Shown here piece by piece: positions 6,930 to 24,318 of a stretch of DNA of 24,364 nt. Both the position numbers and the translations under genes were made by a program. The notes beneath the pieces were generated by a model. That model worked only from the letters and a program-made list of their open reading frames with translations. It did not search any database and was not told the DNA's origin. Each line of letters opens with the position of its first letter. Position 1 is the first letter of the stretch. Source of the DNA: a virus (lineage: Duplodnaviria > Caudoviricetes); IMG/VR virus record IMGVR_UViG_3300032270_001559, positions 1 to 24,364 of that record; one strand, written 5' to 3'.

Positions 6930-6937
6930 TTAATTTT

Positions 6938-6945: not shown

Positions 6946-6978
6946 TTCAATAAAAGTAAGACTAAAGGGTGTAAATAA

Positions 6979-7605
6979 ATGAAGACATTCTCTCAATTTA
7001 TTTTTGAATCAAATCGAAGAGCACAAAGAGCAAGTAAGTCTGGCCGTGTCGCAAAAGAAGGACCAAGATCTAGAGGGGAAAATGAACCAAGTGCAATAGT
7101 GACAGTAGGATTGCCAGGTTCTGGGAAATCAACTATTGCAAAGCACATGGTATCCAAAGGAAACACAGATCAACATGAATTGGATAAATCAAGAATTGCT
7201 CTCAAAAAAGGACCTGCATATTTTGGTCAAGATATTGTGAAGCATACTTATGGTGGCGCAGAGCAAAGTGCAAAAGCTGGTAGAAACACAGTTCTTTCTA
7301 ATACGTCAATTCCAAAACAACATCGAAATGATGCTGTGCAAAAATTGCACGATGTTGGATATAAAGCTGTGACTCCTGTTCTTGCACCAGGATCCACAAA
7401 AGCTGCAATGAGACGTAATCGTAACAGAAGGGGATCAAATCCAGGAGAAGGTGCAGTACCACAGTTTGTTATGAATAGAATGGCACAAGGTATGAAACAA
7501 ATTGGAAGAAAAGAAAAAAGAGAACTAAGAGGTAATTATAAAAAATTACACAAACAAGAACGATTCACCAAACCAGCAATGAGAAGATCTGGAGCAATTC
7601 GATGA
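6979..7605 (+). CDS. P-loop kinase (AAA_33/PNK-like) with capsid-targeting-like N-terminus
   Basis: IVTVGLPGSGKST Walker A, DKSR, RRNRNR lid motif; starts MKTFSQFIFE. Confidence 0.75.
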   Translation: MKTFSQFIFESNRRAQRASKSGRVAKEGPRSRGENEPSAIVTVGLPGSGKSTIAKHMVSKGNTDQHELDKSRIALKKGPAYFGQDIVKHTYGGAEQSAKAGRNTVLSNTSIPKQHRNDAVQKLHDVGYKAVTPVLAPGSTKAAMRRNRNRRGSNPGEGAVPQFVMNRMAQGMKQIGRKEKRELRGNYKKLHKQERFTKPAMRRSGAIR

Positions 7606-8672: not shown

Positions 8673-8693
8673 TAACCATTCAAAATAATCTTT

Positions 8694-8752
8694 TGTGACA
8701 CTAAAAAAACTGTCACATCACTTCACCATTTTTCTTCTCATTGCATTATAAT
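8694..8752 (+). promoter_or_regulatory. 24-bp palindrome plus -10 box (early-type promoter)
   Basis: TGTGACA-N10-TGTCACA at 8694-8717, TATAAT at 8747-8752. Confidence 0.65.
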
Positions 8753-8774
8753 AAAAAAAAATAAATGATTTTTT

Positions 8775-9185
8775 ATGAAACTTAAAATTACCGCATACAA
8801 AACTGAATATGGTATTTGGGCATTTGATCATGAACATCAGAATACAGTTGCCGAAGCACTATGCAATGGTACTGAAACTGTGATTGATTGGTATTATGAA
8901 GTAATCAATAATATGAAACCAGTATCTGGTGATAAGATTGATTTTTATCTTGATACTGATTCATTCGATGGCGCAATCACTGACATTACATTGGTTGAGA
9001 CTGATCAGTCTGGTTCATATTATACAGATAAACTGAGTTCGATGAAACTGTGGTTGTGCCCATGGTTGCAAGGATACTTTGGTAGTGTTCCAGAAAAGAT
9101 CTATGTTTATTGTGAAAAACATGAAGAACCAGAAATTGATCCTGAGTTTGATGCCCTACTTGAAGAACTGATTGATAATAAATAA
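8775..9185 (+). CDS. Conserved hypothetical protein (resembles DUF6717 family)
   Basis: WAFD...ID...WLCPW...YF...PEKIYV pattern recognised from memory, not searched. Confidence 0.65.
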   Translation: MKLKITAYKTEYGIWAFDHEHQNTVAEALCNGTETVIDWYYEVINNMKPVSGDKIDFYLDTDSFDGAITDITLVETDQSGSYYTDKLSSMKLWLCPWLQGYFGSVPEKIYVYCEKHEEPEIDPEFDALLEELIDNK

Positions 9186-9206
9186 TATTAATAAAAAAAA
9201 ACGATA

Positions 9207-9914
9207 ATGAAAACATATTCTGAATTCATATCTGAATTCATATCTGATCTTCAAGAAAGATATTATAAACCAGATGAGAAGTTGCCATCTGGTAAGACAC
9301 CCTATGGCAAGTCTAGATCTTCATATTTTAGAAATAAAAGAAAAGATCAAGATAAACCAGATCATGAGGAAAGAATGAGACTTTTGAGAAGAAGTATAAA
9401 CCAAATTCAGAGATCGAATCGTCAAGTTAAGCACGGTGCGGATAATCCGAATTTCAATCCTCATTATCATCCTGATGCAGAGGTTTCTGCCGATAAAAAT
9501 AACTCATTGAGAGTGAACTCTAAGGGAATTGGTTATGTTTTGAAGAACACAGGAAAAAAAACAAAAGACAATAGACCAGTTCATGATGTCCTGTGGTACC
9601 ATACCCGTGATGATTCATCCGACGAAAAGAAAAAACAAATTACAAGAGATGCAAAGAATGTCTGGCACACACATGTCCAACATCGCATTCCTCATGGTTC
9701 AGTATTAACCAACTTTCCAGTTTCTAATCCATCAGATAAAAATCCACAAAGGAATACAAGAGCAAAATTATATCAAAGAGCAGGATTTGGTCCGAGAGGA
9801 AGCAGTGGAGATCAATATGCAAGTGTAGGTAGAGAACCATCACCAAAACAAAAAGCAAAGGGTGCGAAAAGGCTCAAGCCAATGTCCGGTGATACCGAAA
9901 CATTTAGGAATTAA
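9207..9914 (+). CDS. Putative internal head protein, paralog of 7602 C-terminal domain
   Basis: MKTYSEFISEFISD start (12-bp duplication tctgaattcata); shared motifs with 7602 ORF. Confidence 0.75.
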   Translation: MKTYSEFISEFISDLQERYYKPDEKLPSGKTPYGKSRSSYFRNKRKDQDKPDHEERMRLLRRSINQIQRSNRQVKHGADNPNFNPHYHPDAEVSADKNNSLRVNSKGIGYVLKNTGKKTKDNRPVHDVLWYHTRDDSSDEKKKQITRDAKNVWHTHVQHRIPHGSVLTNFPVSNPSDKNPQRNTRAKLYQRAGFGPRGSSGDQYASVGREPSPKQKAKGAKRLKPMSGDTETFRN

Positions 9915-10595: not shown

Positions 10596-10751
10596 TCAGT
10601 GGACAGTTGATGAACTGTCCTCTCTTAGCTCAATGTCATCCTTATTCATCTTTCCATCATAAGACTTTTCTGCGAGATCTAATAAAACCTCAAGTAATTC
10701 TTCTTCGCTTAGATTCTTATGAATCATCTTGCCTTGATAGAATACATTCAT
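10596..10751 (-). CDS. Small hypothetical protein (51 aa, not in ORF track)
   Basis: MNVFYQGKMIHKNLSEEELLEVLLDLAEKSY...; start overlaps the HNH stop (TGATG). Confidence 0.65.
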   Translation of the reverse strand: MNVFYQGKMIHKNLSEEELLEVLLDLAEKSYDGKMNKDDIELREDSSSTVH

Positions 10752-11299
10752 CATAATTCAATTACTCTTATTATATCTTTATGTGATTTTCTTTTTCCTT
10801 TGGATATTGCAACTAATTTGGTTGCTTGATATCTATTATTTCTGGAAAACTCACTTATATTAGTGACAGCAATTACATCCCCAGTTTCATAAGTCAATTC
10901 ATATGTTTTTGGGGGAGTTCCCCATCTTCCCATAGTTTGGGCTTTTCTTACATTATCTCCTCTATTAATCCATTGTAAATTAGATATATTATTATTTAAT
11001 TTGTTTCCATCAATATGATCTACACATTCTAAATTATTTGGATTTGGTATTAAAGTTTCTGCTATTATGCGATGTAAATGAATAGTTTTTTTATTTTTTT
11101 GTCCACCAAGATCTACCCTTAAGTATCCATATTTAGTTTTATTTTGCTTTAGTTCTTTTCTTTTTCCTGGCATAATTACTCTGGGTCTAGCTTCACCTTT
11201 GGGGGTTCCTAACTGAAATCCCCAAGAAGTAAAAACTTTAATTTCTAATCCATTAATATAAAGATAATATCCAGGCCAATCTTTTATTTCGTATTCCAT
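10751..11299 (-). CDS. HNH homing endonuclease
   Basis: GYLRV...HRIIAETLIPNPNNLECVDHIDGNKLNNNISNLQW...DN. Confidence 0.9.
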   Translation of the reverse strand: MEYEIKDWPGYYLYINGLEIKVFTSWGFQLGTPKGEARPRVIMPGKRKELKQNKTKYGYLRVDLGGQKNKKTIHLHRIIAETLIPNPNNLECVDHIDGNKLNNNISNLQWINRGDNVRKAQTMGRWGTPPKTYELTYETGDVIAVTNISEFSRNNRYQATKLVAISKGKRKSHKDIIRVIEL

Positions 11300-11304
11300 T
11301 TATA

Positions 11305-12099
11305 TCAAATACATCTGACCTTCTCATGTCCCACACGAATTCGAGGGTCACACCAGACTTCAAATCCATTTGCCTTGGCATCTAGACAGAAAGATACATC
11401 TTCTCCGCACATATCCTGCACTGCACCGTTTTCGAATACTTGCAATTTAGGTGCAAACCATGGATAAGGTAATGATTCAAAAATACCTTTTCTGATCATG
11501 ACCCATCCGAATCCGACATAATCCAATTTGAATGGTTTCTTTCTTGCTGCCATGGAATCTACGGTTTCGTTTTTCATCATACCACCATTCTTACGAAACT
11601 CATCTTCATTCAACCAATGAGCAGCAGCAGCAGAATGTCCGTCCTCTGTGCAATACCAACCAGAAGAAACATGATTTACTTTTGTTTCATCAATTTCATT
11701 AGTCTCGGGACAAATTGCGTCTGCTGGAAATGCAAGATCACAGAGTTTCCAGAATGAATCAGAATCAAATACAATGTCACTATCGATCCATAGTTGCCAA
11801 TCATAATCAATCTGCCCATTCCATGGTTTCTGATTTGGACCATTCAGAACATTTGCACCCAATACTCTGCAGCGAGCAAAGTTTACCATGGATGAGTATT
11901 CTTGAAATAGATGAAATGCAGTTCCGTTATTTGCCAGATCAAAGCACAGTCTGATCATGGCCTTCATGAATACAAAGGAACATTGCCTACCTGGAATACA
12001 GATTGCAATGGTTTTTCCTCTCATTCTTTCTTTGATTTTATCAAAATCCCATTCCTGTTTTGGTTCTTCTTTTGTCTTTACTTGGAAGCCCTTCGCCAT
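11305..12099 (-). CDS. GT-A fold glycosyltransferase-like conserved cyanophage protein
   Basis: VNFAR, WIDSD (DxD), GFGWVMI, GEDVSFC, VGHEK motifs. Confidence 0.75.
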   Translation of the reverse strand: MAKGFQVKTKEEPKQEWDFDKIKERMRGKTIAICIPGRQCSFVFMKAMIRLCFDLANNGTAFHLFQEYSSMVNFARCRVLGANVLNGPNQKPWNGQIDYDWQLWIDSDIVFDSDSFWKLCDLAFPADAICPETNEIDETKVNHVSSGWYCTEDGHSAAAAHWLNEDEFRKNGGMMKNETVDSMAARKKPFKLDYVGFGWVMIRKGIFESLPYPWFAPKLQVFENGAVQDMCGEDVSFCLDAKANGFEVWCDPRIRVGHEKVRCI

Positions 12100-12100
12100 T

Positions 12101-12565
12101 TCAATTCTCCAATAAATGTTTATGAGTTTTGTTGTGTATTATATTGCAAATTGTAGATGTTGTTACATCATACTTATTAGCAAGATCAATTTTTTTGTAT
12201 TTGTTTGTACTATATAATTGTCTGATTTCAATTACTTCTTGGTCTTTTAATTTTGCTGCTCCATTATTTTCTCCTTTCTGATTTCCAGTATAGCATCTTC
12301 CCTTCATCACTTTATCTCTCACATTATCTAGATTAGTACCAGAAAATAAATGTAGAGGATTTACGCATTTCCTATTATCACATTTGTGAAGGCAATGTAA
12401 GTCTTTTAGTGGCTTCGCATAATAAATTTCATACATTATTCTATGTGATTTATATGCTTTTCTCTTATTGCAAAATACTCCATATCCATATGCATCAATT
12501 GTTCCTTTCCATTCCCAACATTCATTTTCATCAAGAATATCAGGCAAGTAATCATAAAATTTCAT
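12101..12565 (-). CDS. HNH endonuclease with C-terminal HTH
   Basis: CWEWKG...GYG...HR...LHKCDNRKCVNPLHLFSGTNLDNVRD; C-terminal LANKYDVTTSTICNI. Confidence 0.9.
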   Translation of the reverse strand: MKFYDYLPDILDENECWEWKGTIDAYGYGVFCNKRKAYKSHRIMYEIYYAKPLKDLHCLHKCDNRKCVNPLHLFSGTNLDNVRDKVMKGRCYTGNQKGENNGAAKLKDQEVIEIRQLYSTNKYKKIDLANKYDVTTSTICNIIHNKTHKHLLEN

Positions 12566-13029: not shown

Positions 13030-13230
13030 TCAGGCAAACTTGCTGACAAGATTGTCATAAATTACCTGACCATTCTCACTGAGAGAATTGTATCCCTTCC
13101 AAGCAGCGCCTGGCCTGAAGTAACTTCCAATGCGAGACATGCGCCCATACAACTCAGACCCCATTCCGCTGTGATGGTCGGCGCAGAAAGCGTAGTGTGC
13201 TGCCATAATGTCAAAACGATCAAACCACAT
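13030..13230 (-). CDS. Early hypothetical protein (66 aa)
   Basis: Start revised to ATG 13230, directly after the shared GTCGTCAGGGAATCGCTCCC leader. Confidence 0.75.
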   Translation of the reverse strand: MWFDRFDIMAAHYAFCADHHSGMGSELYGRMSRIGSYFRPGAAWKGYNSLSENGQVIYDNLVSKFA

Positions 13231-13256
13231 GGGAGCGATTCCCTGACGACTCACTA

Positions 13257-13298
13257 AAGGTAGACCGGATCGGCTCCTGATTCTGTATCGGTTGCTAC
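13257..13298 (-). promoter_or_regulatory. NtcA-type promoter
   Basis: GTATCGGTTGCTAC 13285-13298, 22 nt gap, -10 TACCTT 13257-13262. Confidence 0.7.
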
Positions 13299-13364
13299 CA
13301 AACTGGAATGTTAAGTGTTGTTACGCCAGCCGCAGCAGGCCCCACGGTCTGGTAGACTATGGGG

Positions 13365-13473
13365 ACAACAGAAGAAGAGGCTAAGAAGGCCGATGACGAC
13401 AAGTAAGCCACGCTGACCCTGCCATAAAATAATTGACTCATAAAGAATAAAGAAAGGAGGCAAGATGCCTCCT
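13365..13473 (+). ncRNA. Candidate structured sRNA copy 1
   Basis: TAGACT -10 (13353), 6 nt, ACAA; GA-GGCU AAGAA GGCC-GAU-GA; core; hairpin 13455-13473. Confidence 0.55.
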
Positions 13474-13480
13474 GTTTGTG

Positions 13481-13780
13481 TCAATCTACGATGTAACGTC
13501 CAACTACAATGTCGGTACAAGAATTGACGATCTTAATGATCATCGAACTCCACACCGTTTCCATCAGATAGCCTTGCCAACCCTTGGCAAGCAGCTCACC
13601 TTCCAACCGGCAGAATTGCGACATGCAATACCACTCTCCCTGGTATTGAAACACCATCTCAGTGGAATCATCGAAGTCGATTGAATCAAACTCCTTCCGG
13701 ATCTTGGCTTGAGTTTTAATGTCCAACTCGCAAAGTTGGAACATCGGGCGAGCTTGGAAGTTTGAGATGATGCGGGACAT
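13481..13780 (-). CDS. Early hypothetical protein (99 aa)
   Basis: Start revised to ATG 13780 after the shared leader; FQYQGEWY...WQGY. Confidence 0.75.
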   Translation of the reverse strand: MSRIISNFQARPMFQLCELDIKTQAKIRKEFDSIDFDDSTEMVFQYQGEWYCMSQFCRLEGELLAKGWQGYLMETVWSSMIIKIVNSCTDIVVGRYIVD

Positions 13781-13806
13781 GGGAGCGATTCCCTGACGAC
13801 CTTTGA

Positions 13807-13848
13807 ACAGTAGGAGAATCACTGTTTTGATTCTGTATCGGTTGCTAC
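13807..13848 (-). promoter_or_regulatory. NtcA-type promoter
   Basis: tGTATCGGTTGCTACa (core 13835-13848), 22 nt, -10 TACTGT 13807-13812. Confidence 0.72.
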
Positions 13849-13926
13849 AAAAACGGAAACCTGAAGAACTGTTACGATCCCGTGGCAGAATGACGGATCA
13901 GCCCCACAGCCTGGTAGACTATGGGG

Positions 13927-14039
13927 ACAAGGGAAAAAGAGGGTCCGAAGCCCAGTGACGAAAGTAAGCCACGCTTACCCTGCCATAAAATAAAAGTATA
14001 AAGAATAGAAAAAAAGAATGAACTTTTGGTTCATTCTTT
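13927..14039 (+). ncRNA. Candidate structured sRNA copy 2
   Basis: TAGACT 13915; stem GGGU CCGAA GCCC; perfect GUAAGC CAC GCUUAC. Confidence 0.55.
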
Positions 14040-14046
14040 ATACTTT

Positions 14047-14304
14047 TTATGATCCGATTCTACGCATCATCTGATCATAAACCCACATAATGAACTCCCC
14101 AAGATCTACATTGATCGGACCAAACTCTGGATCATACCAGTTAGAAATATCTCCATACTCTGCGATGAATTGTTCATTCAAACCTTTAATCTGGCAGTAT
14201 GTTTCCGCCAGGTAATAGGGAATTGCCTCGCAATCATCCTGAACCCTTGAGAGGAACTGGATCTGTGGAGACGTTACGATGGTTGCAAGGACAGCCAGAG
14301 ACAA
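14047..14304 (-). CDS. Early hypothetical protein
   Basis: TTG start placed exactly after the leader variant GTCGTTAGGGGTTCATCCC. Confidence 0.7.
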   Translation of the reverse strand: MSLAVLATIVTSPQIQFLSRVQDDCEAIPYYLAETYCQIKGLNEQFIAEYGDISNWYDPEFGPINVDLGEFIMWVYDQMMRRIGS

Positions 14305-14480
14305 GGGATGAACCCCTAACGACCTTCCTACAATACAGCATCGCCTGACCGACTGAAAGCCGATCCGGCGATTAAAACCGGAAGGAAAACGGAAGAAAAC
14401 GGGAATCCTGGTTTGTTAAGTTGTGTTACGGTCTGGCGCTGGGAGCCGGTGAGAGCCCCACAGCCTGGTAGACTTAGGAC

Positions 14481-14594
14481 ACAAAGGAAGACGAGGCTAA
14501 GAAGGCCGATGACGAACAGTAAGCCACGCTGACCCTGCCATAAAATAATAGTATAAAGAATAGAAAAAAAGAATGAACTTTTGGTTCATTCTTT
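14481..14594 (+). ncRNA. Candidate structured sRNA copy 3
   Basis: TAGACT 14469; GGCU AAGAA GGCC; core 14519. Confidence 0.55.
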
Positions 14595-14606
14595 ATACTT
14601 TATGAC

Positions 14607-15122
14607 TCAGATTCGAGTCAGATTGTGCCAATCTTGCGTAAGCACTTGCTCATCTCCAGGTATGCCAATCCACCAAACAAAGTTACGCTGAGTTACTTTG
14701 TTTCCAGTGAAATGTCTGGCGATTGCGTTCAGATACTTTTTCGTTGTATCTGACCGTTTGCTACTGCCATTGATCGACACTTGACGATCATAAACAACAG
14801 CAATACACTTGTCATAAAAATAGACAATCATCGCATCGTCTTTGTTGAGAATTTCCAGGTTTTTGTTTTTATAGTTTTTCTTCAGTTCAAGTGCAGTCAA
14901 AATAGATTGAACCACCTTTTGTTTGGACAATTCTTTATACGCTTGTTGCACAATCGCTTGCTGATAATTTCTATAAAAATCACAGAATTGTGGACGCCCA
15001 TTAGGATAAACGTATCCTGCACGAGTTACCATCTCAGAGCGTGAGAAACTGATGGAAGACTTGCTGACTTCATTATAGTGAGCAATCAGTTTTGATCCGG
15101 TAAGAGCGCTGAGAATGGACAT
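14607..15122 (-). CDS. Fusion: cyAbrB N-terminal-like domain plus domain paralogous to the 16149 ORF
   Basis: LTGxxL...SxSE...AGY...NG...FxDFY N-terminus; C-terminal TTKxxLNAI shared with 16149..16466. Confidence 0.7.
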   Translation of the reverse strand: MSILSALTGSKLIAHYNEVSKSSISFSRSEMVTRAGYVYPNGRPQFCDFYRNYQQAIVQQAYKELSKQKVVQSILTALELKKNYKNKNLEILNKDDAMIVYFYDKCIAVVYDRQVSINGSSKRSDTTKKYLNAIARHFTGNKVTQRNFVWWIGIPGDEQVLTQDWHNLTRI

Positions 15123-15147
15123 GGGAGGAATCCCTGACGACTTCTAA

Positions 15148-15189
15148 ACAGTAACCGAGACCGGTCTGGCAATCTGTATCGGTTGATAC
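15148..15189 (-). promoter_or_regulatory. NtcA-type promoter
   Basis: GTATCGGTTGATAC 15176-15189, 22 nt, -10 TACTGT 15148-15153. Confidence 0.72.
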
Positions 15190-15255
15190 CAAAACGGAAT
15201 GTTAAGTTTTGTTGCGGCAGCCGGAATCCGGCGCTGGCTCTGCTAGACTTAGGTC

Positions 15256-15369
15256 ACAAGCGAAGACGAGAGCACGAAGCTCGATGACGACAAGTAAGCC
15301 ACGCTGACCCTGCCATAAAATAATAGTATAAAGAATAGAAAAAAAGAATGAACTTTTGGTTCATTCTTT
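15256..15369 (+). ncRNA. Candidate structured sRNA copy 4
   Basis: TAGACT 15244; GAGC ACGAA GCUC; core 15294. Confidence 0.55.
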
Positions 15370-15375
15370 ATACGA

Positions 15376-15564
15376 TCAGATTGTAAAAAGCATCTTCATG
15401 CTCATCACATCTTGCTCCATCAATTTAAGATTTTGTTCGTTCCATTCCTCGTGATTGATGTCACCATTGGGATGATAAAGAACGACCATCCAATGATCGT
15501 AAAGTTTCGTATTAAGGTGAGCAAGGTTAAAGAATGCGTTGCTGATTGCTTCGTTGATGTTCAT
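15376..15564 (-). CDS. Hypothetical protein
   Basis: 62-aa ORF ending at the shared terminator. Confidence 0.6.
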   Translation of the reverse strand: MNINEAISNAFFNLAHLNTKLYDHWMVVLYHPNGDINHEEWNEQNLKLMEQDVMSMKMLFTI

Positions 15565-15621
15565 GATGAAGAAAGAATAAGTGAACAGAATGAGGGGAGG
15601 AATTGCCTCCCCATTGTTACA

Positions 15622-15885
15622 TCAGACAGGCTGACGCAAGTGAGAATAACCTGGGACTTCATACGCCCAGTTAAATGTAGGAATTGTCCGCAGAATACGC
15701 TTGTATTCTCTCACGGAAATACTGATTCTTTCTGCATTGTATGCAGAATCTCGCCAGATTCCAGGGACAGCGTGATGCCCACAATACCCTTCATCCCACT
15801 GGGCGATGTAGTCTTCATCTTTGAGAACGTAGACTCTTTGTGGGTTGCCATTGTTGTCATTCTCGGCGCAAAGATGGACGATCAT
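15622..15885 (-). CDS. Early hypothetical protein (87 aa)
   Basis: Start revised to ATG 15885 after the leader; NDxNGNPxRVYV...DEGY motif. Confidence 0.75.
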   Translation of the reverse strand: MIVHLCAENDNNGNPQRVYVLKDEDYIAQWDEGYCGHHAVPGIWRDSAYNAERISISVREYKRILRTIPTFNWAYEVPGYSHLRQPV

Positions 15886-15913
15886 GGTGGGAGCGATCCC
15901 TGACGACTTACTA

Positions 15914-15966
15914 ACAATACGGCATGGGGAGCAGCCTGTCAACCCCCATAAGGTATCGGTTGCTAC
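15914..15966 (-). promoter_or_regulatory. Sigma70 promoter with upstream NtcA box
   Basis: TTGACA (15937-15942)-17-TATTGT (15914-15919); GTATCGGTTGCTAC 15953-15966, 33 nt from the -10. Confidence 0.7.
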
Positions 15967-16033
15967 CAAAACGGAATGTTAAGTTTTGTTGCGGCAGCCA
16001 CGGTGATGGCGCTGGCTCTGCTAGACTTAGGAC

Positions 16034-16141
16034 ACAAGCGAAGACGAGAGCACGAAGCTCCATGACGAACAGTAAGCCACGCTAACCCTGCCATAAAATA
16101 CTAGACTGTAAAGTATAAAAAAAGGAGGCAATTTTGCCTCC
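16034..16141 (+). ncRNA. Candidate structured sRNA copy 5
   Basis: TAGACT 16022; core 16072. Confidence 0.55.
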
Positions 16142-16148
16142 AATTGAT

Positions 16149-16466
16149 TCAATTCAACCTCATTCCAGAAAAGAACGGAATGGTGCCGAATTGACTGGAA
16201 TTAAAATACCATTGTCCTTTCTTTTGGAATACACTTTCATCCCCAATTCCATGCTCGAAAAGTATAGCGTTCAGACGAGATTTGGTAGTGTTTGTTTGAT
16301 GGCCACCATCGAACAATTCAATCCAAGTTTCTCCAATTCTGGCAATCAAATTGCCATAAAGAAAGACATCAGAATGGTGCGTAAAACTGATAACTTCAGT
16401 GTTAGCAAGTTTCCAATCTTTATGATTGGTGATTGCATGGTTCATCTGGCGCTCGATCTTACGCAT
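16149..16466 (-). CDS. Conserved cyanophage early protein (MRKIERQM family, 105 aa)
   Basis: Start revised to ATG 16466 after the leader; VFLYGNLIA...GGHQTNTTKSRLNAIL...VFQK..QW. Confidence 0.8.
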   Translation of the reverse strand: MRKIERQMNHAITNHKDWKLANTEVISFTHHSDVFLYGNLIARIGETWIELFDGGHQTNTTKSRLNAILFEHGIGDESVFQKKGQWYFNSSQFGTIPFFSGMRLN

Positions 16467-16603
16467 GGGAGGAATCCCTGACGACTCCATCAGCATAAAC
16501 CCCAGAATCACCCCTGAGCTGCTGCCAGTGGACGATTTTTTATCTGTCCACTGAGCCCAGAATACGATGGTCCAATGGCCAAGGTCTGTGCTAGACTGAT
16601 GGC

Positions 16604-16709
16604 ACAAGGGAAGACGAGAGCACGAAGCTCCATGACGAACAGTAAGTCACGTTTACCCTGCCATAAAATAAAAGTATAAAGATTAAAAAAAAGGAGAGTT
16701 ATACTCTCC
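16604..16709 (+). ncRNA. Candidate structured sRNA copy 6
   Basis: TAGACT 16592; hairpin 2 variant GUAAGU CAC GUUUAC keeps pairing via G-U. Confidence 0.55.
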
Positions 16710-16718
16710 CAGAAAGTA

Positions 16719-17066
16719 TCAGATTGCCTTAAACCTCAGCTGATAAGTTGGCGCACCGTAGATAACCTGTCCGGTTTTCTCTTCGATGAGTTTTTGTGCG
16801 GCAACTTTTGCCTTCCACTCTTCCATCTTATCTGTCAGTTTTGCAACCTTGGCAGTGTAGGTTTTATCGCAGATCTCTGCGATGGTGACTGTACCGGAAG
16901 CGGTGAGAATCGTCTTCAGATCATCATTGTTTGCCGTGATAATCATGGCGCAATTTAGCAGCTCCTGGCGGCACTCTGCGATCTGAGCTTTAATCGCTTT
17001 CTCCTGCTGAAGGAGGGCCTTCAGGTTGGCTGCGGTCAGCTCGATCCGTTGGGAGTTGGTGGTCAT
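16719..17066 (-). CDS. Coiled-coil hypothetical protein (115 aa)
   Basis: Start revised to ATG 17066, downstream of -10 TACGAT and a GTCG leader. Confidence 0.75.
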   Translation of the reverse strand: MTTNSQRIELTAANLKALLQQEKAIKAQIAECRQELLNCAMIITANNDDLKTILTASGTVTIAEICDKTYTAKVAKLTDKMEEWKAKVAAQKLIEEKTGQVIYGAPTYQLRFKAI

Positions 17067-17227
17067 GGTCAGGGCTCCTGTCCCTTTCGACTCCATAATC
17101 GTAGCAGCACGGCAAGCCAGACCGACGGTCGAAAACGGAAGAAAACCTTAAGAAAACCAATGTTACGGATTGTTACGATTCAGCCTCGGAGCCTCGGATC
17201 AGCCCCACAGCCTGCTAGACTTAGGAC

Positions 17228-17340
17228 ACAAGCGAAGAAGAGAGCACGAAGCTCGATGACGATAAGTAAGCCACGCTAACCCTGCCATAAAATACTAGAC
17301 TATAAAAAATAAAAAAAGAGATTGTTATACACAACCTCTC
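17228..17340 (+). ncRNA. Candidate structured sRNA copy 7
   Basis: TAGACT 17216; core 17266. Confidence 0.55.
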
Positions 17341-17366
17341 TCACTAATTGTTATAAAGAATGAAGA

Positions 17367-17639
17367 TCAATCTTCAGTTTCTTTCTGATAGTGTTCAAGT
17401 GGAAATTCTTCATTCAATTCTTTATAGTCTGCCTGAAGCTGATAAGATACCTCATTCAGATTGCCTTTGTTGGCACACACCAATGCGTGGTAGTATTGAA
17501 AGCCTTGGATCCACTCAAAAAACTCCACATCGGTCATGGGAGTGTAATCTTCAGAGACACAATCCCACTCGGAAACTAGAGCGTATTCTCCAAGAGATAC
17601 AGCAGATTGAATGAAACGATCGCTGACGGAATCAGACAT
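17367..17639 (-). CDS. Hypothetical protein
   Basis: 90-aa acidic ORF ending near a terminator. Confidence 0.65.
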   Translation of the reverse strand: MSDSVSDRFIQSAVSLGEYALVSEWDCVSEDYTPMTDVEFFEWIQGFQYYHALVCANKGNLNEVSYQLQADYKELNEEFPLEHYQKETED

Positions 17640-17745
17640 GAGAAGAATAACGAAAGAACAAAGAATTAAACGTTAAATGAGAAAAATACGTTTTTCCTCA
17701 TTTTGACTTGCAAAGGGAGCCTAGGATACCATGGCTCCCACCAGC

Positions 17746-17925
17746 TCACCATTCCATGTCTTTTTTCTTCACTACACGATTGATTCTATACAGTTTATTC
17801 ATCAGCGGTTGAACTTGCCAAGATTCAACAACATAAACCTTGCCGTTTTGAAAGTCATTCCAGGCCCATAGATCATTTCCGGTTTCGATGTCGGAGCATT
17901 GAACGAAGGAGGATGGGAGAGACAT
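17746..17925 (-). CDS. Early hypothetical protein (59 aa, not in ORF track)
   Basis: MSLPSSFVQCSDIETGNDLWAWNDFQNGKVYVVESWQ...; follows the shared leader and -10 TATGCT; hairpin 17715-17739 downstream. Confidence 0.7.
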   Translation of the reverse strand: MSLPSSFVQCSDIETGNDLWAWNDFQNGKVYVVESWQVQPLMNKLYRINRVVKKKDMEW

Positions 17926-18056
17926 GGGGCGATCCCTGACGACTCCCTAAGCATACCATAGATTCAGGCAGCCAGCGCCAGTCCTGTTCACAAACCAACA
18001 CATAAAGTTTTGTGACGGCAGCCACGGTCAGGCGCTGGTGGTGCTAGAATTAGGAC

Positions 18057-18165
18057 ACAAGCGAAGAAGAGAGCACGAAGCTCGATGACGACAAGTAAGC
18101 CACGCTAACCCTGCCATAAAATAATGAACTATAAAGATTAAAAAAAAGGAGAGTATAACTCTCCT
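18057..18165 (+). ncRNA. Candidate structured sRNA copy 8
   Basis: TAGAAT 18045; core 18095. Confidence 0.55.
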
Positions 18166-18173
18166 CTTTATGA

Positions 18174-18545
18174 TTAACCGAGATAAAAATCATCTCGGTG
18201 GCCATACATTAGTGTATTCCAATCTTCTTTTGTGTCTACAGTTATCTCACGAAGTTGTTGATCTAAATCAACTTCATAACGTCCACCATTCTCTCCTGCA
18301 TCAACCTCAGGCTGATACGGTTCATTGTGGCCACGATATACATGAGCAACTGCAATCTTGTATGCTTTATCTACAGAATCACTCCAAACATGAAAGCGAT
18401 CTGTTTCGATCAGATTATCTTCGATTGAGAATACTTTCCATGCCTGAAAACAATAGCGAAATGCAACATCATCCTGATACTTGAACGTATCAGTTCCGAT
18501 CAATTCAATTCCACCTAAACCGCTGAACTGCTGTTTGTTGCTCAT
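18174..18545 (-). CDS. Early hypothetical protein
   Basis: 123-aa ORF; -10 TATATT 18576-18581; leader shared with the 21504 gene. Confidence 0.75.
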   Translation of the reverse strand: MSNKQQFSGLGGIELIGTDTFKYQDDVAFRYCFQAWKVFSIEDNLIETDRFHVWSDSVDKAYKIAVAHVYRGHNEPYQPEVDAGENGGRYEVDLDQQLREITVDTKEDWNTLMYGHRDDFYLG

Positions 18546-18674
18546 GAGAAGAGGAAGAAGATTCCCAACAGAATCAATATACAGCCAGGAATCACCCTGG
18601 CCAGTGGTTCTTGTGTCAGTGGTTCAACTGTCCATTGCTGTGGCACAGAGCCCATGATCTGCTAGGATGATGGG

Positions 18675-18797
18675 ACAACGGAAGACGAGAGCACGAAGCT
18701 CGATGACGAACAGTAAGCCACGCTAACCCTGCCATGAAATAGTAGTATAAAAAAAAAATAAAAAAAGAGAGAGATTGTTATACACAACCTCTCTCTT
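18675..18797 (+). ncRNA. Candidate structured sRNA copy 9
   Basis: TAGGAT 18663; core 18713 with CATGAAAT variant. Confidence 0.55.
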
Positions 18798-18803
18798 AAT
18801 TCT

Positions 18804-19127
18804 TTATTCCCACTGAGAGGTAAACTCTTCTTCAACTTTCTCGATAATGTTGAAGATAGTTGTATTGGGTTTGCCACCCCAATCTGCTAGAATTTCAGAC
18901 TCATCATTCCCAAGCACAATGAACAATCTTGCGAGTGTACCATTGTGTTCAACACGAACGATAGCCTCATCCACAGAAGTGATAACATCAGTGGCGTTCT
19001 TTCTAATCTCTAGTTTACTGTTGCCACTGATCTTTTCCCAGTTCATACCATCAAAAACCTGAGTGATGTTCACTTCTTCCTTCTGAAGCTTATGAAGCAG
19101 AGACATCACCGATTTCGTGTAATCCAT
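18804..19127 (-). CDS. Early hypothetical protein
   Basis: VFDG...SVDE...IVLGNDESEILADW; upstream TTGACT-17-AACAAT. Confidence 0.78.
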   Translation of the reverse strand: MDYTKSVMSLLHKLQKEEVNITQVFDGMNWEKISGNSKLEIRKNATDVITSVDEAIVRVEHNGTLARLFIVLGNDESEILADWGGKPNTTIFNIIEKVEEEFTSQWE

Positions 19128-19250
19128 GAGAACCTGGTTGACTACTCTTTAATTGTTGCACCAATTAAACGGAAAGTCAATGGCCTTGTGCCAGTTATCA
19201 GACTGTCCACTGGTGTGGCACAGAGCCTCATGACCGACTAGACTTAGGAC

Positions 19251-19364
19251 ACAAGAGAAGAAGAGGCTACGAAGGCCAGTGACGATAAGTAAGCCACGCT
19301 GACCCTGCCATAAAATAATAATATAAAAAACTAAAAAAAAGAATGAACTTTTGGTTCATTCTTT
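19251..19364 (+). ncRNA. Candidate structured sRNA copy 10
   Basis: TAGACT 19239; GGCU ACGAA GGCC; core 19289. Confidence 0.55.
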
Positions 19365-19378
19365 ATGTGTGTTACTTA

Positions 19379-19597
19379 TTAGTTAAACAATGAACGAAAC
19401 AACTCTTCGATTGTTTCTGTTTTTTGCGGAAAGGAAACAGAGGAAGCATAGGTAACACCACAAGCTCTTGCATGTTTCATGATGGTGACTGTACCAATAC
19501 CAACACAAGTGCCGTCTTGTGTATATTCATCAGTGGCTGTTTCATATTCTGTGCCTTTCACCCAGACACGGTGCGGATCAGGGATAATTGCAGCCAT
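19379..19597 (-). CDS. Early hypothetical protein
   Basis: 72-aa ORF; -10 TACAAT 19623-19628; palindrome 19669-19692. Confidence 0.65.
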   Translation of the reverse strand: MAAIIPDPHRVWVKGTEYETATDEYTQDGTCVGIGTVTIMKHARACGVTYASSVSFPQKTETIEELFRSLFN

Positions 19598-19815
19598 TTG
19601 GGTAGTTGTGGTGGTCTCCCCTATTGTAGCAGCCTTCCTGGGGCTTCTGGGGGCCTCTCAGCGTGTCCTGTACCAGTTCCTTGACTGTCCATGAGAATCA
19701 GAAAAAACACGAAAAACGAAAAATATAATCATAAGAAAGAAAGAATGATTCATTTCTTATGAGAGCCCATGATACGCATAAAAAAAGAGAGAACATTGTC
19801 TCTCTTTCTTATGAT

Positions 19816-19995
19816 TCAGTATGCAGGAAGTTTACTCTCTGGACCGTACTCTTTTACATACTCAGGAAAAGCAACAATCAGTTTGTTCCTATTAGAACGA
19901 TCTGCTTTTACCATTGCATGTGCAAGTGCTTGAACAAATGAACCACCATACTGTGACATACGGTTGGTCATTTCATGAAACTCAATGTCAGTCAT
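19816..19995 (-). CDS. Phage hypothetical protein (YGGSF...AD..N...AFP family)
   Basis: Start revised to 19995, overlapping the upstream stop. Confidence 0.75.
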   Translation of the reverse strand: MTDIEFHEMTNRMSQYGGSFVQALAHAMVKADRSNRNKLIVAFPEYVKEYGPESKLPAY

Positions 19996-20176
19996 TTGCA
20001 TCCTCCAGCAATTCAGGATTGTACTCTTCAACCTCAGTGATCAATTCTTCATCAGAATAAGATGAAAGATTGTCTTTCAGTGTGTCATAAACCATACGCT
20101 CCATTGTTTTCATATCCATCCCATCAATGATTTGTTGGATGTAATCTTCGATGAGAGTTTCACGATCAAAAGTCAT
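19988..20176 (-). CDS. Acidic hypothetical cyanophage protein
   Basis: IIDGMD...YSDEELITEVEEYNPELLE; translationally coupled. Confidence 0.75.
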   Translation of the reverse strand: MTFDRETLIEDYIQQIIDGMDMKTMERMVYDTLKDNLSSYSDEELITEVEEYNPELLEDAND

Positions 20177-20313
20177 TTGACATTCTCCAGTTTTTGAAAG
20201 ATTGAATAAACTTCAGGTTCGATTTCAGTCTCATCGACACCTTGTACTCCACCTTCAATATAATAAAGAATGGTGGAGATTTCTTCTTTTGTGAGTTCTA
20301 CTGTGAAAGTCAT
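20173..20313 (-). CDS. Small hypothetical protein (46 aa, not in ORF track)
   Basis: MTFTVELTKEEISTILYYIEGG...; start/stop overlaps on both sides. Confidence 0.7.
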   Translation of the reverse strand: MTFTVELTKEEISTILYYIEGGVQGVDETEIEPEVYSIFQKLENVK

Positions 20314-20492
20314 CAGAAACGAATGATAGGATGGTCTACATCAAGCACCTGACATTCATCAGTTGCAAACATAAACTCTACACCTTCTTGATGGAACTCA
20401 TCATTCTCATAACTGTCCCAGATACAAACATCAGAGTTCAGTTGTTCTTCATTCAGTTGTTGCAACTGTTGCAGAAGTTCTTTGTAGGTCAT
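20313..20492 (-). CDS. Hypothetical protein (59 aa)
   Basis: Start revised to MTYKELLQQL at 20492 (ATGA overlap with the upstream stop). Confidence 0.75.
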   Translation of the reverse strand: MTYKELLQQLQQLNEEQLNSDVCIWDSYENDEFHQEGVEFMFATDECQVLDVDHPIIRF

Positions 20493-20614
20493 TTCCTCAG
20501 GGGAGAATTGAAGTAACGAGTGAAGCATAGCACCAGAATGATGCCAGTGGAGATGATGCCGACCAGTCCGAGAACTGTCACACCGTCTCCTGCGAATCCA
20601 TAAGTCTCAGGCAT
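20489..20614 (-). CDS. Small single-pass membrane protein (41 aa, not in ORF track)
   Basis: MPETYGFAGDGVTVLGLVGIISTGIILVLCFTRYFNSPLRK; first gene of a coupled 5-gene operon. Confidence 0.7.
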   Translation of the reverse strand: MPETYGFAGDGVTVLGLVGIISTGIILVLCFTRYFNSPLRK

Positions 20615-20685
20615 AAGGTCTCTCAGGGAACAAAGGTAGTATGGCATGGATTGGGGGGAAGGTCAATTCCCCCCTGTGACAGTTG

Positions 20686-20940
20686 TCAAAGCATCTCAAT
20701 CAGGTGCATCAGTGTGGTGATCTGAACCGGAGTCTGCCAACGAATAACATCCTCCAGCATGTTACCATTGGAGCGAAACACAGCAACCTCAAAAGTGTCG
20801 TGCTGAACATCACCATAAAGACCAGATCCTGTTGGTCCTGCGACTACACTAATGGTCCAATCATTCTCAAATGTATGCCTTGCTTGTGTGGCACCTTTGA
20901 TGGCACCATGGTCGTGGAAGGTCAGATCGGAGAAAGTCAT
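20686..20940 (-). CDS. Phage hypothetical protein
   Basis: F.N...ISVV.G...GLYG......FEVAV pattern; -10 TATACT 20964-20969. Confidence 0.78.
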   Translation of the reverse strand: MTFSDLTFHDHGAIKGATQARHTFENDWTISVVAGPTGSGLYGDVQHDTFEVAVFRSNGNMLEDVIRWQTPVQITTLMHLIEML

Positions 20941-21064
20941 CGAAGTGATGTGGAACTGAGATCAGTATAGGGACAGGATGTGGCAGGGTGACGCTTCCTT
21001 GTGCCAGTGCCAGAACTGTCCACCGCAGAGTCTTATGGCCATCATGACCGACTAGACTAAGGAC

Positions 21065-21178
21065 ACAAGAGAAGAGGAGAGCAAGAAGCTCTATGATGAT
21101 AAGTAAGCCACGCTAACCCTGCCATAAAATAATAATATAATGAACACAAAAAAGATTGAGAATAATAATTCCCAATCT
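21065..21178 (+). ncRNA. Candidate structured sRNA copy 11
   Basis: TAGACT 21053; GAGC AAGAA GCUC; core 21103. Confidence 0.55.
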
Positions 21179-21192
21179 AGTTGTTTATATTT

Positions 21193-21504
21193 TTATGGTC
21201 TCCACGCATCAGGGAAAATATCTTTAATGTAGTTTAGAACGTATTGTTGATCTTCATGAGAAAGATCATCATAAGCTTCCCAGAATGAATCTTCAATGAA
21301 CCATAGATCGTGAATGGTATTTGTATAAAAATTATCTATATTTTCATCCCATTGTTCTTTCTCCAGAATTGCATTTTCAATATCCATTGCTGCTTTTACA
21401 TATTCTGTTCTATCATATGAATAATGTTTGATTCGATTCATACATTGAACAATGAATGATTCTCCAAGAGAATCAAGAATCGGATTGCGGATGAAGTTGC
21501 TCAT
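21193..21504 (-). CDS. Early hypothetical protein (103 aa)
   Basis: Start revised to ATG 21504, downstream of -10 TATATT 21533-21538. Confidence 0.72.
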   Translation of the reverse strand: MSNFIRNPILDSLGESFIVQCMNRIKHYSYDRTEYVKAAMDIENAILEKEQWDENIDNFYTNTIHDLWFIEDSFWEAYDDLSHEDQQYVLNYIKDIFPDAWRP

Positions 21505-21634
21505 GAGAGGAAAGAAGAATCCCAACAGAATCAATATACTGGAAAAAGAAACGCACAACCATCACAGTGGACAGTTTTACGATTGGCACAGCAGCCGGAA
21601 AGGAGAGTATAACTCTCCCTTCCTTATGTTTTAC

Positions 21635-22381
21635 TTATTTGCTACCATAACCAACGAACTGACCTTTAGCTTTACGATCACGAATTGCAGCCCCCCATTC
21701 ACTACCAGCCGGTTGAATACCATGAACTAAGAGAGCAAACGGATTATCACCGAAACAATGAGAATCGTCGTGATCCACTTCGAGACCCAGAGCACTTGCT
21801 TCCTCATCATTTTTGACAACTTTTGCATAACGAGGGAAGAAACCTTCTTCGATAAGGTGATCATATTTGCCACCATAAGAAGCTGTGAGATAGAAGTTTG
21901 GTGGGAAAGTCTTCGCATCAGCATCAGGAAAAAACAGATTCAGAGACTTGCTATAGCAATAGAACTGCAAATCAGGATTGCGTTCTGCTACTTTATACCA
22001 TGCACTGATATAAGAATAGTTGAAGAAGTCACCACTAGGATGAATACGAACCTTGTCAGTCTTACGCATTGCATTCTCATCAATGCTACGATGAATCAGA
22101 TCCGCACAATGATCTACACTCACACGAAGAGCTTCTACAATCAGCTCAGTATTGTGTTTGTGTGCTTTATACGTATTGGGATAAGATACTTCGTTGCTTG
22201 CAGCGAAACAACGGAATTGCATCTCAGATCCATCAAGAATCCGATTGCGATTGTTCTCGTCTTGAATCACCCAAGACTTACAAATGTTTGCTCCTGGGCA
22301 TGTCTTACCTGCCAAAAGACTAAAGGTCAGAGTAGACTTGGGCAGTTTGCCGTTGCCACTGGAGAGTTTGAGGAGATCCAT
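21635..22381 (-). CDS. GP88-like (gene product 88 family) protein
   Basis: FSLLAGKTCPGA..C...CFA...RIHPSGDF...W...PDLQFYCYSKS; start revised to 22381 because a -10 lies at 22407-22412. Confidence 0.75.
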   Translation of the reverse strand: MDLLKLSSGNGKLPKSTLTFSLLAGKTCPGANICKSWVIQDENNRNRILDGSEMQFRCFAASNEVSYPNTYKAHKHNTELIVEALRVSVDHCADLIHRSIDENAMRKTDKVRIHPSGDFFNYSYISAWYKVAERNPDLQFYCYSKSLNLFFPDADAKTFPPNFYLTASYGGKYDHLIEEGFFPRYAKVVKNDEEASALGLEVDHDDSHCFGDNPFALLVHGIQPAGSEWGAAIRDRKAKGQFVGYGSK

Positions 22382-22507
22382 CAGTCGGTTCCTTTGGGAC
22401 TCCATCAATATAGGCTCTGCTGCCAGCCTAGCCAATGGTCCTTGTGCCAGTGCCATAAGTGTCCACTACCATGGTTTTGGGGCTTATGATCCACTAGACT
22501 GATAACA

Positions 22508-22573
22508 ACAAGAGAAGAAGAGAGCAAGAAGCTCTATGATGATAAGTAAGCCACGCTTATCCTGCCATAAAAT
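22508..22573 (+). ncRNA. Candidate structured sRNA copy 12 (3' end uncertain)
   Basis: TAGACT 22495; core 22546; runs into the 32-bp repeats. Confidence 0.5.
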
Positions 22574-22577
22574 AATT

Positions 22578-22701
22578 GACTCATAAAGAATCGAAATATA
22601 AGGAAGTCTGATCGGTGGGGGACGACTCATAAAGAATCGAAATATAAGGAAGTCTAATTAGTGTGCTGCGACTCATAAAGAATCGAAATATAAGGAAGTC
22701 T
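22578..22701. repeat. Three 32-bp direct repeats, 46-bp period
   Basis: GACTCATAAAGAATCGAAATATAAGGAAGTCT at 22578, 22624, 22670; two different 14-nt spacers. Confidence 0.95.
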
Positions 22702-22768
22702 GATCTTTATGAGAGCACTGATAAGTTATTATGATGGGGGGGGGTGGACAGTTTTTTATGTGGCCCCC

Positions 22769-22797
22769 TTGACAAAAAAGTGAGCCGATGCTATAAT
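22769..22797 (+). promoter_or_regulatory. Perfect sigma70 promoter
   Basis: TTGACA-17 nt-TATAAT with extended TG; palindrome variant 22744-22767 adjacent. Confidence 0.85.
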
Positions 22798-22818
22798 AGG
22801 GCGGCCAAGACTGCTGCC

Positions 22819-23004
22819 ATAAGGAAGGATTATATTACATAAGGAAGCATAAAGAAGGAATAAAGAAACATAAAGAAGGAATAAAGAAACATAAAGAAGG
22901 ATTATATTACATAAGGAAGCATAAAGAAGGAATAAAGAAACATAAAGAAGGAATAAAGAAACATAAAGAAGGATTATATTACATAAGGAAGCATAAAGAA
23001 GGAT
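22819..23004 (+). repeat. Purine-rich 72-bp tandem repeat (about 2.5 units, 21-bp sub-repeats)
   Basis: ATTATATTAC at 22829, 22901, 22973; repeated ATAAAGAA/ATAAGGAA words. Confidence 0.93.
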
Positions 23005-23144
23005 AATTCTTATAAAAAACGATAAAATTATAATAATTACCCACAATACACACAACAATACCGATATATACGAAAATACCTAAAAAAACCACTATATTTT
23101 TCTACCTATATTAAATATACTATATAGAAAAAAAATACTAAAAA

Positions 23145-23678
23145 ATGAACCCAATTCTATCGGTCAGACATAAGGTCCTGTCAGATATACCTGGTATGGA
23201 GAAGTATAGTTACTACGTTGTAGATATTGACGGAAATGTATGGTCTACTAAGTTCAACAAATTAAAAAAGTTAAAACCTGGATGGGCCAAGCATAAGGAT
23301 GGATACAGATTCGTTCGTCTTACAAGTGATGATAAAAAACTAAAAAACTTCTTCATTCATCGTCTTGTTGCTCTTGCCTTTATTGCTACTGATACTACTG
23401 AACTAGACGTTGTTCATAAGAATAAAATTTTATACGATAATCGTGTGGAGAATCTATTCTGGACTCAACGTACTCGACAAGGTAAGCTCCAGTCTAGAAA
23501 GAAAAAGGTAGAGACTGAGAAATACGTCATTGATCAATTCAAGAACATTCATACTGCATCTATACGGAAAGGTATGACTGTACCTACAGACGAAGAGTTT
23601 ATGCAATCTATTATCAATGGTGCTATTGAGAATTATATCAATCAGTATGGTCTAAGAAAGATACTTCATACTTTATAA
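23145..23678 (+). CDS. NUMOD4/HNH-like endonuclease, possibly degenerate
   Basis: Y.VD..GNVWS...GY..V.L...HRLVALAFI...VVHKNKILYDNRVENLFW. Confidence 0.75.
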   Translation: MNPILSVRHKVLSDIPGMEKYSYYVVDIDGNVWSTKFNKLKKLKPGWAKHKDGYRFVRLTSDDKKLKNFFIHRLVALAFIATDTTELDVVHKNKILYDNRVENLFWTQRTRQGKLQSRKKKVETEKYVIDQFKNIHTASIRKGMTVPTDEEFMQSIINGAIENYINQYGLRKILHTL

Positions 23679-23923
23679 TTTTTTTTATGCTGTGCTTCCG
23701 TCATAAGATATAATCTTCTTACAAGTTCTGTTGCATTGGGGTTAATTGCTGCTTCATAACGAACATGGTGATCATCATCAGTCGCCATAAGTTCTAGTGT
23801 TTCTAGTGATGTGTTTGAATGTTGTGCAACCAACCAACGAACATGCCAATGATCATCAGTCGCTAGATGCTGTAGTGTTTCTGGTAGTGTGTTTGGGTGA
23901 TTTGCCAGTTGAAGATTATTCAT
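23666..23923 (-). CDS. LRV/HEAT-like repeat protein
   Basis: LATDDxxxVRxxVAxHxNT 24-aa repeats. Confidence 0.8.
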   Translation of the reverse strand: MNNLQLANHPNTLPETLQHLATDDHWHVRWLVAQHSNTSLETLELMATDDDHHVRYEAAINPNATELVRRLYLMTEAQHKKNYKV

Positions 23924-24318
23924 TTCTTTTGTGCCTCCGTCATAAGATACAATCTACGAATAAGTTCGGTTGCATTTGGATGATGTGCTGCTTCATAACG
24001 AACATCAGAATCTTTATCAGTCGCCAGAACTTTTAGTGTTTCTGGTGATGTGTTTGGGTTTTGTGTGGCAAAATAACGAATCTCTTCATCTTTATCAGTC
24101 GCCAGAACTTTTAGTGTTTCTGGTGATGTGTTTGGGTTTAGTGCAACCAAAGAAACAATCATATAATAATCATCAGTCGCTAGAAGTTGTAGTGCTTCTG
24201 GTGATGTGTTTGGGTGTCGTGCAACATAATAACGAACACCACCATCGTCATCAGTCGCTAGAATCTTCAGTTGTTCTGGTGTTGCATTTGGGTCTCTTGC
24301 CAGTTCAAGATTCGTCAT
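23920..24318 (-). CDS. LRV/HEAT-like repeat protein (paralog, more repeats)
   Basis: Four LATDxDxx(V/I)R-type repeats with PNTSPE; -10 TATACT upstream. Confidence 0.82.
   Translation of the reverse strand: MTNLELARDPNATPEQLKILATDDDGGVRYYVARHPNTSPEALQLLATDDYYMIVSLVALNPNTSPETLKVLATDKDEEIRYFATQNPNTSPETLKVLATDKDSDVRYEAAHHPNATELIRRLYLMTEAQKK

Follow-up and report, generated by a model that had tools for sequence, protein, structure and literature searches.

In T4-type phages, cassette exchange is mediated by so-called PeSL units, each of which combines a phage promoter with a stem-loop terminator (Arbiol 2010, PMC2839356; Comeau 2014, PMC4122927; here and for the other published systems, the comparison draws on parts of the sources cited). 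A repeated element with a comparable layout was found in IMG/VR record IMGVR_UViG_3300032270_001559, of which a stretch of 24,364 nucleotides (nt) was analyzed (referred to as the window; all coordinates are window positions). Like PeSL, the element forms repeated promoter-plus-terminator units between small variable genes, with exchange at the repeats: it is intergenic in a hyperplastic region, a terminator stem-loop lies on the gene strand in 11 of 12 cases, and cassettes were exchanged relative to another record, G005. However, what is conserved at its core is not a consensus sigma70 promoter (-35/-10) directed at the gene that follows but an opposite-facing -10 box with an RNA unit; between the terminator and the gene promoter lies a second, opposite promoter with a covarying core of 65 nt that looks transcribed. 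Judged by its sequence, the element is a real, undescribed family: putative early RNA genes in multiple copies, set in a PeSL-like framework.

Several small RNAs from phages and their hosts resemble the element in other respects. The pseudo-ToxI repeats of phage PhiTE (Blower 2012, PMC3475682) likewise involve a phage non-coding RNA, with copy number as a lever and a host RNA being mimicked, but they are tandem antitoxin-like repeats, whereas the copies described here are dispersed and separately promoted, and no host counterpart was found. Neither was a pseudoknot of the type III antitoxin kind detected in the element, no loop-loop covariation being present among the top pairs. The Racr RNA anti-CRISPRs (Camara-Wilpert 2023, PMC10651486) are small phage RNAs proposed to sequester host proteins by mimicry; these are solitary, however, while up to 12 copies occur here, with no CRISPR-repeat match in Rfam. 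Finally, the small RNAs Yfr1 and Yfr2 (Cyano-1, RF01701; PMC6191309, PMC6778093) belong to the host group, and Yfr2 has several homologs per genome, but the element matches nothing in Rfam, and five host Yfr2 genes showed no consistent complementarity to it.

Copies, promoters, and RNA anatomy

The original prediction had described 12 same-orientation copies, and a fuzzy search of the window returned that number, all on the plus strand, between positions 13353 and 22573. With a covariance model built from 90 copies (R1, the 12 window copies being part of its training set), they scored 77 to 87 bits, versus 10 bits for the next match in the window. The copies, in which P1 denotes the first hairpin, are as follows:

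Copy 1: 13353..13430, plus strand; -10 box 13353-13358, predicted start 13365, P1 13379-13391, conserved boxes to 13430
Copy 2: 13915..13991, plus strand; predicted start 13927, P1 13941-13953; variant with an 11-nt linker
Copy 3: 14469..14546, plus strand; predicted start 14481, P1 14495-14507
Copy 4: 15244..15321, plus strand; predicted start 15256, P1 15270-15282
Copy 5: 16022..16099, plus strand; predicted start 16034, P1 16048-16060; top 16S alignment score (48)
Copy 6: 16592..16669, plus strand; predicted start 16604, P1 16618-16630
Copy 7: 17216..17293, plus strand; predicted start 17228, P1 17242-17254
Copy 8: 18045..18122, plus strand; predicted start 18057, P1 18071-18083
Copy 9: 18663..18740, plus strand; predicted start 18675, P1 18689-18701
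Copy 10: 19239..19316, plus strand; predicted start 19251, P1 19265-19277
Copy 11: 21053..21130, plus strand; predicted start 21065, P1 21079-21091
Copy 12: 22495..22573, plus strand; predicted start 22508, P1 22522-22534; no terminator-like hairpin downstream

Pattern scans of viral contigs brought up 63 loci, and those of metagenome contigs 97. From all loci collected, 159 distinct matches were extracted, 158 of which were kept as window-type copies (L108 was removed for want of the hairpin), and a leader-based scan reached 59 diverged copies. Both clades share the same order of parts: a -10 box, an A-rich leader of variable length, a hairpin of 4 to 5 base pairs (bp), a linker of usually 12 nt, a G-x-CAC box, a spacer that differs by clade (6 or 4 nt), CCUGC, and an AU-rich tail. 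In the diverged clade, the promoter, the hairpin, the 12-nt linker, and the boxes are kept, while the sequence of P1 differs.

Covariation in this hairpin, as claimed from the window alone, held up in the larger set. On the plus strand, P1 is paired in 632 of 632 cells (158 window-type copies), including 108 G-U or U-G wobbles that would be mismatches if read on the minus strand; wobbles of the reverse type number zero. Pairs 2 and 3 vary on both sides. For the hairpin, mutual information (MI) values of 1.0 and 0.88 were obtained over 138 distinct cores. The 6-bp hairpin 2, on the other hand, which had been put forward as conserved, does not survive comparison: its pairs fail in relatives, with only 74% of cells paired across 56 copies, one pair broken in 51 of these, the two apical pairs broken in 14 and 15, and a two-sided change in a single cell, and the RNAalifold consensus fold retains P1 only. 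A helix between the G-x-CAC flank and CCUG is paired in 75% of cells with no two-sided changes, loop-loop kissing (hinted at by the B23 copies) found no MI support, and MI revealed no long-range covariation in either clade. A small hairpin following P1 (GAC/GU) was rejected, as it pairs in window-type copies but is broken in most diverged ones. We also discarded a minigene starting at an ATG, GTG, or TTG after P1 (145 of 158 copies): third codon positions are invariant, seven copies are frameshifted, and the start codon is missing in many diverged copies. A purine-AAAU 3' tail, conserved at about 95% per position in the 158 window-type copies and missing from most diverged ones, resembles ToxN cleavage motifs.

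The -10-type hexamers of the original prediction (TAGACT, TAGAAT, or TAGGAT) are indeed present at a constant 6 nt upstream of a conserved ACAA (7 nt in copy 12), and the -10 box is TG-extended in 9 of the 12 copies. Since the combination of hexamer and ACAA also occurs at 5 further plus-strand and 10 minus-strand sites in the window, it is the position that counts, not the pattern alone. In 144 of 148 copies, one of six -10 hexamers was found 13 to 21 nt 5' of the core, TG-extended in 85 cases; the observed range of box-to-core distances, 13 to 19 nt, is expected of a transcribed leader rather than of a phase-fixed DNA site. No consensus -35 element was seen at the RNA promoters, none of the 12 being listed by a sigma70 scan.

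Two kinds of site were found upstream of these promoters:

13310..13327, plus strand: direct repeat with a 10-bp period, resembling HLR1 of RpaB, covering -55 to -38 relative to the start predicted for copy 1
18612..18634, 19187-19209, 21000-21022, and 22443-22465, no strand assigned: imperfect palindromes, 28 nt from the RNA -10 box

A gene-side -10 box was identified for three of the four palindromes, 30 nt away, before copies 9, 11, and 12. As the palindrome is about equidistant from both -10 boxes, it suggests a candidate two-way activator site shared by the RNA and the divergent gene. The distance from the end of the palindrome to the RNA -10 box is 28 to 32 nt in 36 copies, 39 to 41 nt in 13, and 48 nt in 4, and is thus helically phased. 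CGRE1/PlmA was considered as the activator, but this identity was not borne out by the published flanks (GTTG/GTTA, in the part of the source drawn on). Repeats with a 10-bp period similar to that of copy 1 were also seen, by eye, before copies 3, 4, 5, and 7. In RpaB-activated promoters, HLR1 consists of two imperfect 8-nt repeats at -66 to -45 (10.1101/2023.12.07.570523, in the part cited), compared with -55 to -38 for the repeat of copy 1, and an HLR1-like pattern lies upstream of 14 of 144 copies.

The proposed RNA length of 105 to 120 nt was not established, and the 3' ends on the plus strand are uncertain. Terminator-like sites are distributed as follows:

13455..21178, minus strand: terminator-like hairpins of the convergent early genes, directly 3' of copies 1 to 11 (11 of 12 copies)
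13455, 14013, 14568, 18147, and 19338, plus strand: terminator-like sites (5 of 12 copies)

Among 148 copies, such a site is present on the same strand in 48 (within 120 nt), on the opposite strand in 91, and on neither in 56. After some copies (L006, L008, L009, and others), phased A-tracts take the place of a terminator hairpin.

Relatives, phage, and gene cassettes

Five relatives carry 6 to 12 copies each, in one early-region cluster per record. That each copy is divergent from a gene, as had been stated for the window, is not a general rule: four of the five relatives have one flipped copy, and the one in L013 is co-directional with the genes and has no terminator behind it, but a promoter-like site and then a gene. 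R1, which was trained without the diverged clade, recovered a copy from cultured phage B23 at an E value of 1.5e-5; a second model, R2, has B23 copies in its training set. B23 contains seven units at the matching position, upstream of gp25/gp6 and antiparallel to the genes. Among 18 cultured Kyanoviridae, the family is confined to B3 and B23 (seven copies each); in record MN695335.1, seven predicted starts lie within 112677-119240 on the minus strand. A BLASTN search of cultured phages with a single copy yielded chance matches only, and another scan pattern returned mostly chance matches, with 4 of 35 loci recognized by eye as family members.

The original prediction had not recognized the element as a known family, an impression with which Rfam 15 agrees: no family came at or near its gathering threshold, the weak matches falling on terminators or far below the cut-off. 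No published description was found in the full-text literature (subscription papers and the alignments of Fremin 2023, PMC10690425, lying outside the scope), and the element is not mentioned in the parts drawn on of the B3/B23 genome announcement and of a 2025 review.

The contig encodes T4-like baseplate proteins and homologs of Kyanoviridae Gp96, and its gp6 is about 56% identical to gp6 of Synechococcus phages S-SM2 and B23; going by these genes, the freshwater phage is a T4-like cyanophage (Kyanoviridae). An element-bearing relative carries photosystem II genes, with a PsbD that, over the matched part, is 94 to 97% identical to that of Cyanobium/Synechococcus. Because of these phage gene homologies and the identity of the relative's PsbD, the host is likely a picocyanobacterium. 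The genes around the copies are:

13030..22456, minus strand: small early-type genes, the cassettes between the copies, mostly of no assigned function
14607-15122 and 16149-16466, minus strand: Kyano_Gp96 genes
19988-20176, minus strand: DUF7326 gene
21635-22456, minus strand: GP88 gene

The copies run antiparallel to the early genes, each with the terminator of one cassette on one side and the promoter of the next on the other. The cassette order g3-g4-g5-g6-g7-g8-g9-g10 of the window corresponds to g4-g5-g3-g8-g7-g6-g10-g11a-g9 in relative G005, whose genes are largely the same (g3 there being a weak partial match only), and the blastn blocks shared by the two begin and end in or beside copies, such that the shuffled units are bounded by the element. 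This reordering of cassettes is PeSL-like and would come about as a by-product of homologous recombination between copies.

Likeness to 16S rRNA and the role of the RNA

Alignment of copies with a Cyanobium 16S rRNA (ribosomal RNA) gene showed a sense-strand match that had not been expected. All 12 window copies, and 136 of the 158 window-type copies, align best at 16S nt 408 to 462, corresponding to helix 17 plus the 5' half of helix 18 (h17-18; RF00177); the five-helix junction of uS4 (Bellur and Woodson 2009, PMC2665224) served for comparison. The match is collinear and includes picocyanobacterial letters, and P1 is placed at the tip of h17 of the bacterial consensus, a tip that Cyanobium lacks. 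Copy 7 scored above 3000 of 3000 shuffles; in five collinear blocks, chosen post hoc, the consensus agrees with the host at 26 of 26 letters; and when the mean of four copies was compared with 519 host-genome decoys under four scorings, 0, 2, 0, and 1 decoys equaled or exceeded 16S. Under the first scoring, three picocyanobacterial 16S sequences reached 38 to 40 and four from other cyanobacteria 28 to 29, a gap that narrows with stricter gap costs. An antisense likeness to 16S was not significant. We regard the likeness as a lead rather than a finding.

That a discrete RNA is transcribed seems to us quite probable, given the promoter anatomy and the strand-specific wobbles; the -10 box and the phased upstream sites likewise agree with the self-promoted plus-strand RNA originally proposed. 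Each unit would be a small non-coding RNA gene, transcribed by the host RNA polymerase at the start of infection and yielding an A-rich leader, a 4-bp hairpin, a 12-nt linker, the G-x-CAC box, and the CCUGC box. Copy number, together with the flipped copies, argues for an action in trans, and the high copy number combined with early promoters points to dosage. We speculate, by analogy with pseudo-ToxI and the Racrs and by elimination, that the RNA, at high dosage, serves as a decoy for an RNA-binding protein of the host, a tentative reading to which we give not quite an even chance; a conserved shape with unpaired invariant bases would suit recognition by a protein. The 16S likeness would point to a partner that recognizes rRNA (a ribosomal protein, an assembly factor, or an rRNA-cutting defense nuclease), and rRNA mimicry makes up about half of the decoy reading. 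In its most specific form, an array that mimics the host 16S helix 17-18 strand with picocyanobacterial letters, titrates a defense nuclease or a 30S assembly factor, and also shuffles cassettes, the proposal is doubtful.

Several observations weigh against the decoy reading. In 94 of 144 copies, neither of the upstream motifs was detected at 24 to 34 nt, folding of the core is weak (z scores of -0.2 to -0.7 for three copies), and, as several invariant letters were preset by the search patterns, the invariance of window-type copies is partly due to construction. The suggested search of phage and cyanobacterial genomes was successful for B3, B23, and the relatives but not on the host side, where no whole copy for a decoy to mimic was found with the exact pattern in the GTDB collection, with the model in 5 genomes, or among 101 genomes with candidates partly scored; L307 and L309, considered as host copies, proved to be weak, partial 3' matches only. 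As for 16S, just 2 of the 59 diverged copies align best at nt 408 to 462, the likeness being weak in the B23-type clade. Gumbel p values per 1.5-kb target, post hoc and dependent on gap scoring, are 4e-4 to 7e-3 for window copies, 4e-3 to 3e-2 for eight other window-type copies, and 0.02 to 0.1 for eight diverged copies; moreover, all copies together make up a single test, and the comparison was one of several. With nhmmer, 16S was absent among the top 8 and top 3 matches listed, and of the covariance models, R1 matched 16S at an E value of 4 and R2 not at all. Lastly, the element has one strand per helix, missing the partner strands of h17 and h18 as well as helices 3, 4, and 16, which are required for S4 (uS4) binding (PMC2665224, in the part cited).

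Alternatively, the unit might be kept mainly as DNA, providing homology and transcriptional insulation for cassette swaps, with the RNA being incidental. The altered cassette order in G005, the blastn blocks beginning and ending in or beside copies, and the terminator adjoining 11 of 12 copies all speak for such a joint. However, identity is what recombination requires, which leaves compensatory changes and one-strand wobbles unexplained; the extra -10 box points away from the genes; the 12-nt linker and the boxes outlast the loss of identity between the clades; and only 2 of 12 copies have a P1 that passes for a terminator when read on the minus strand. We consider this explanation unlikely. 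The scarcity of same-strand terminator-like sites within 120 nt (48 of 148 copies, with 56 having none on either strand) would also fit a cis-acting leader: antisense transcripts would begin with this structure, extend into the early genes convergent with them, and protect or damp the mRNAs of those genes. Antisense RNA reportedly protects from RNase E in cyanophage infection. Yet neighboring genes are unrelated and exchangeable, which, like the flipped copies (the one in L013 being co-directional with the genes), argues against a role in cis, and the internal boxes are conserved beyond the needs of a 5' stabilizer, so that we find this option rather improbable.

Variation within the boxes is mostly A/G or C/U, which fits a fixed pairing partner and could mean that the CAC and CCUGC boxes of a small RNA, or anti-small RNA, pair with one host RNA; in addition, the complement pattern occurs 42 times in 151 genomes, against 22 for a reversed control. 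It is present, however, in only 28 of the 151, with differing inner letters; duplexes with 16S and Yfr2 mostly do not surpass shuffled controls (best case, 1 of 50), pairing with the 3' strand of h18 ranks 32 and 157 of 490 windows, and the box spacing is 6 nt in one clade and 4 nt in the other. With clade divergence outside the two short boxes and no conserved host complement both arguing against it, base pairing appears quite improbable. Dispersed, invariant unpaired bases at fixed spacing would be in keeping with a compact ribozyme or with an aptamer that sponges a small signaling molecule, and a stoichiometric sponge needs many copies, as observed. Even so, only one helix is solid, long-range covariation is absent from both clades, no Rfam family came near its cut-off, and the twister-sister and twister-P3 models gave no match at E <= 10, making this very improbable in our view; resemblances to hammerhead, twister, pistol, box C/D, and riboswitches were likewise dropped, as no models matched.

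Counter-defense by RNA is known from few phage cases (pseudo-ToxI and the Racrs). If the decoy reading is right, the maintenance of 6 to 12 separately promoted early RNA genes across diverged freshwater cyanophages would imply a strong host target, and an rRNA mimic, if true, would amount to a ribosome-level battleground in picocyanobacteria. The presence of the family in cultured phages B3 and B23 allows both its expression and its partner to be tested directly.

Other features of the early region

Within and around the early region, the following was also noted:

13227-13250, 13778-13800, 15122-15145, 15888-15910, 16466-16490, and 17925-17945, minus strand: 5' leader shared by six early genes (a conserved box and a short hairpin just before the start codon)
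20990-21000, minus strand: promoter region of gene 20686-20940, with a short match to the 3' boxes of the element on the opposite strand (a remnant or chance)
22578-23033: gene-free stretch with three 46-bp and several 21/30-bp AT-rich repeats and a G run
22769-22797: perfect TTGACA-17-TATAAT promoter within this stretch
23666-24318, minus strand: two LRV-repeat proteins
10751-12565, minus strand, and 23145-23678, plus strand: three HNH endonuclease genes
6346-9914, plus strand: open reading frames at 6346, 6979, 7602, and 9207, all starting with MKT[YF]S[EQ]FI

The gene-free stretch is a candidate origin or terminus region. The LRV-repeat proteins flank the early region, as they do in G003 and G005, and so do the HNH endonuclease genes. 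The shared MKT[YF]S[EQ]FI start, which we take to resemble the capsid-targeting N terminus of T4 internal proteins, makes it likely by analogy that the four proteins, one of them a polynucleotide-kinase/AAA_33 protein, are packaged and injected. At L212 (G001:112682-113763) of relative G001, finally, one match to a photosystem II reaction-centre gene is split, with stops, which suggests an intron.

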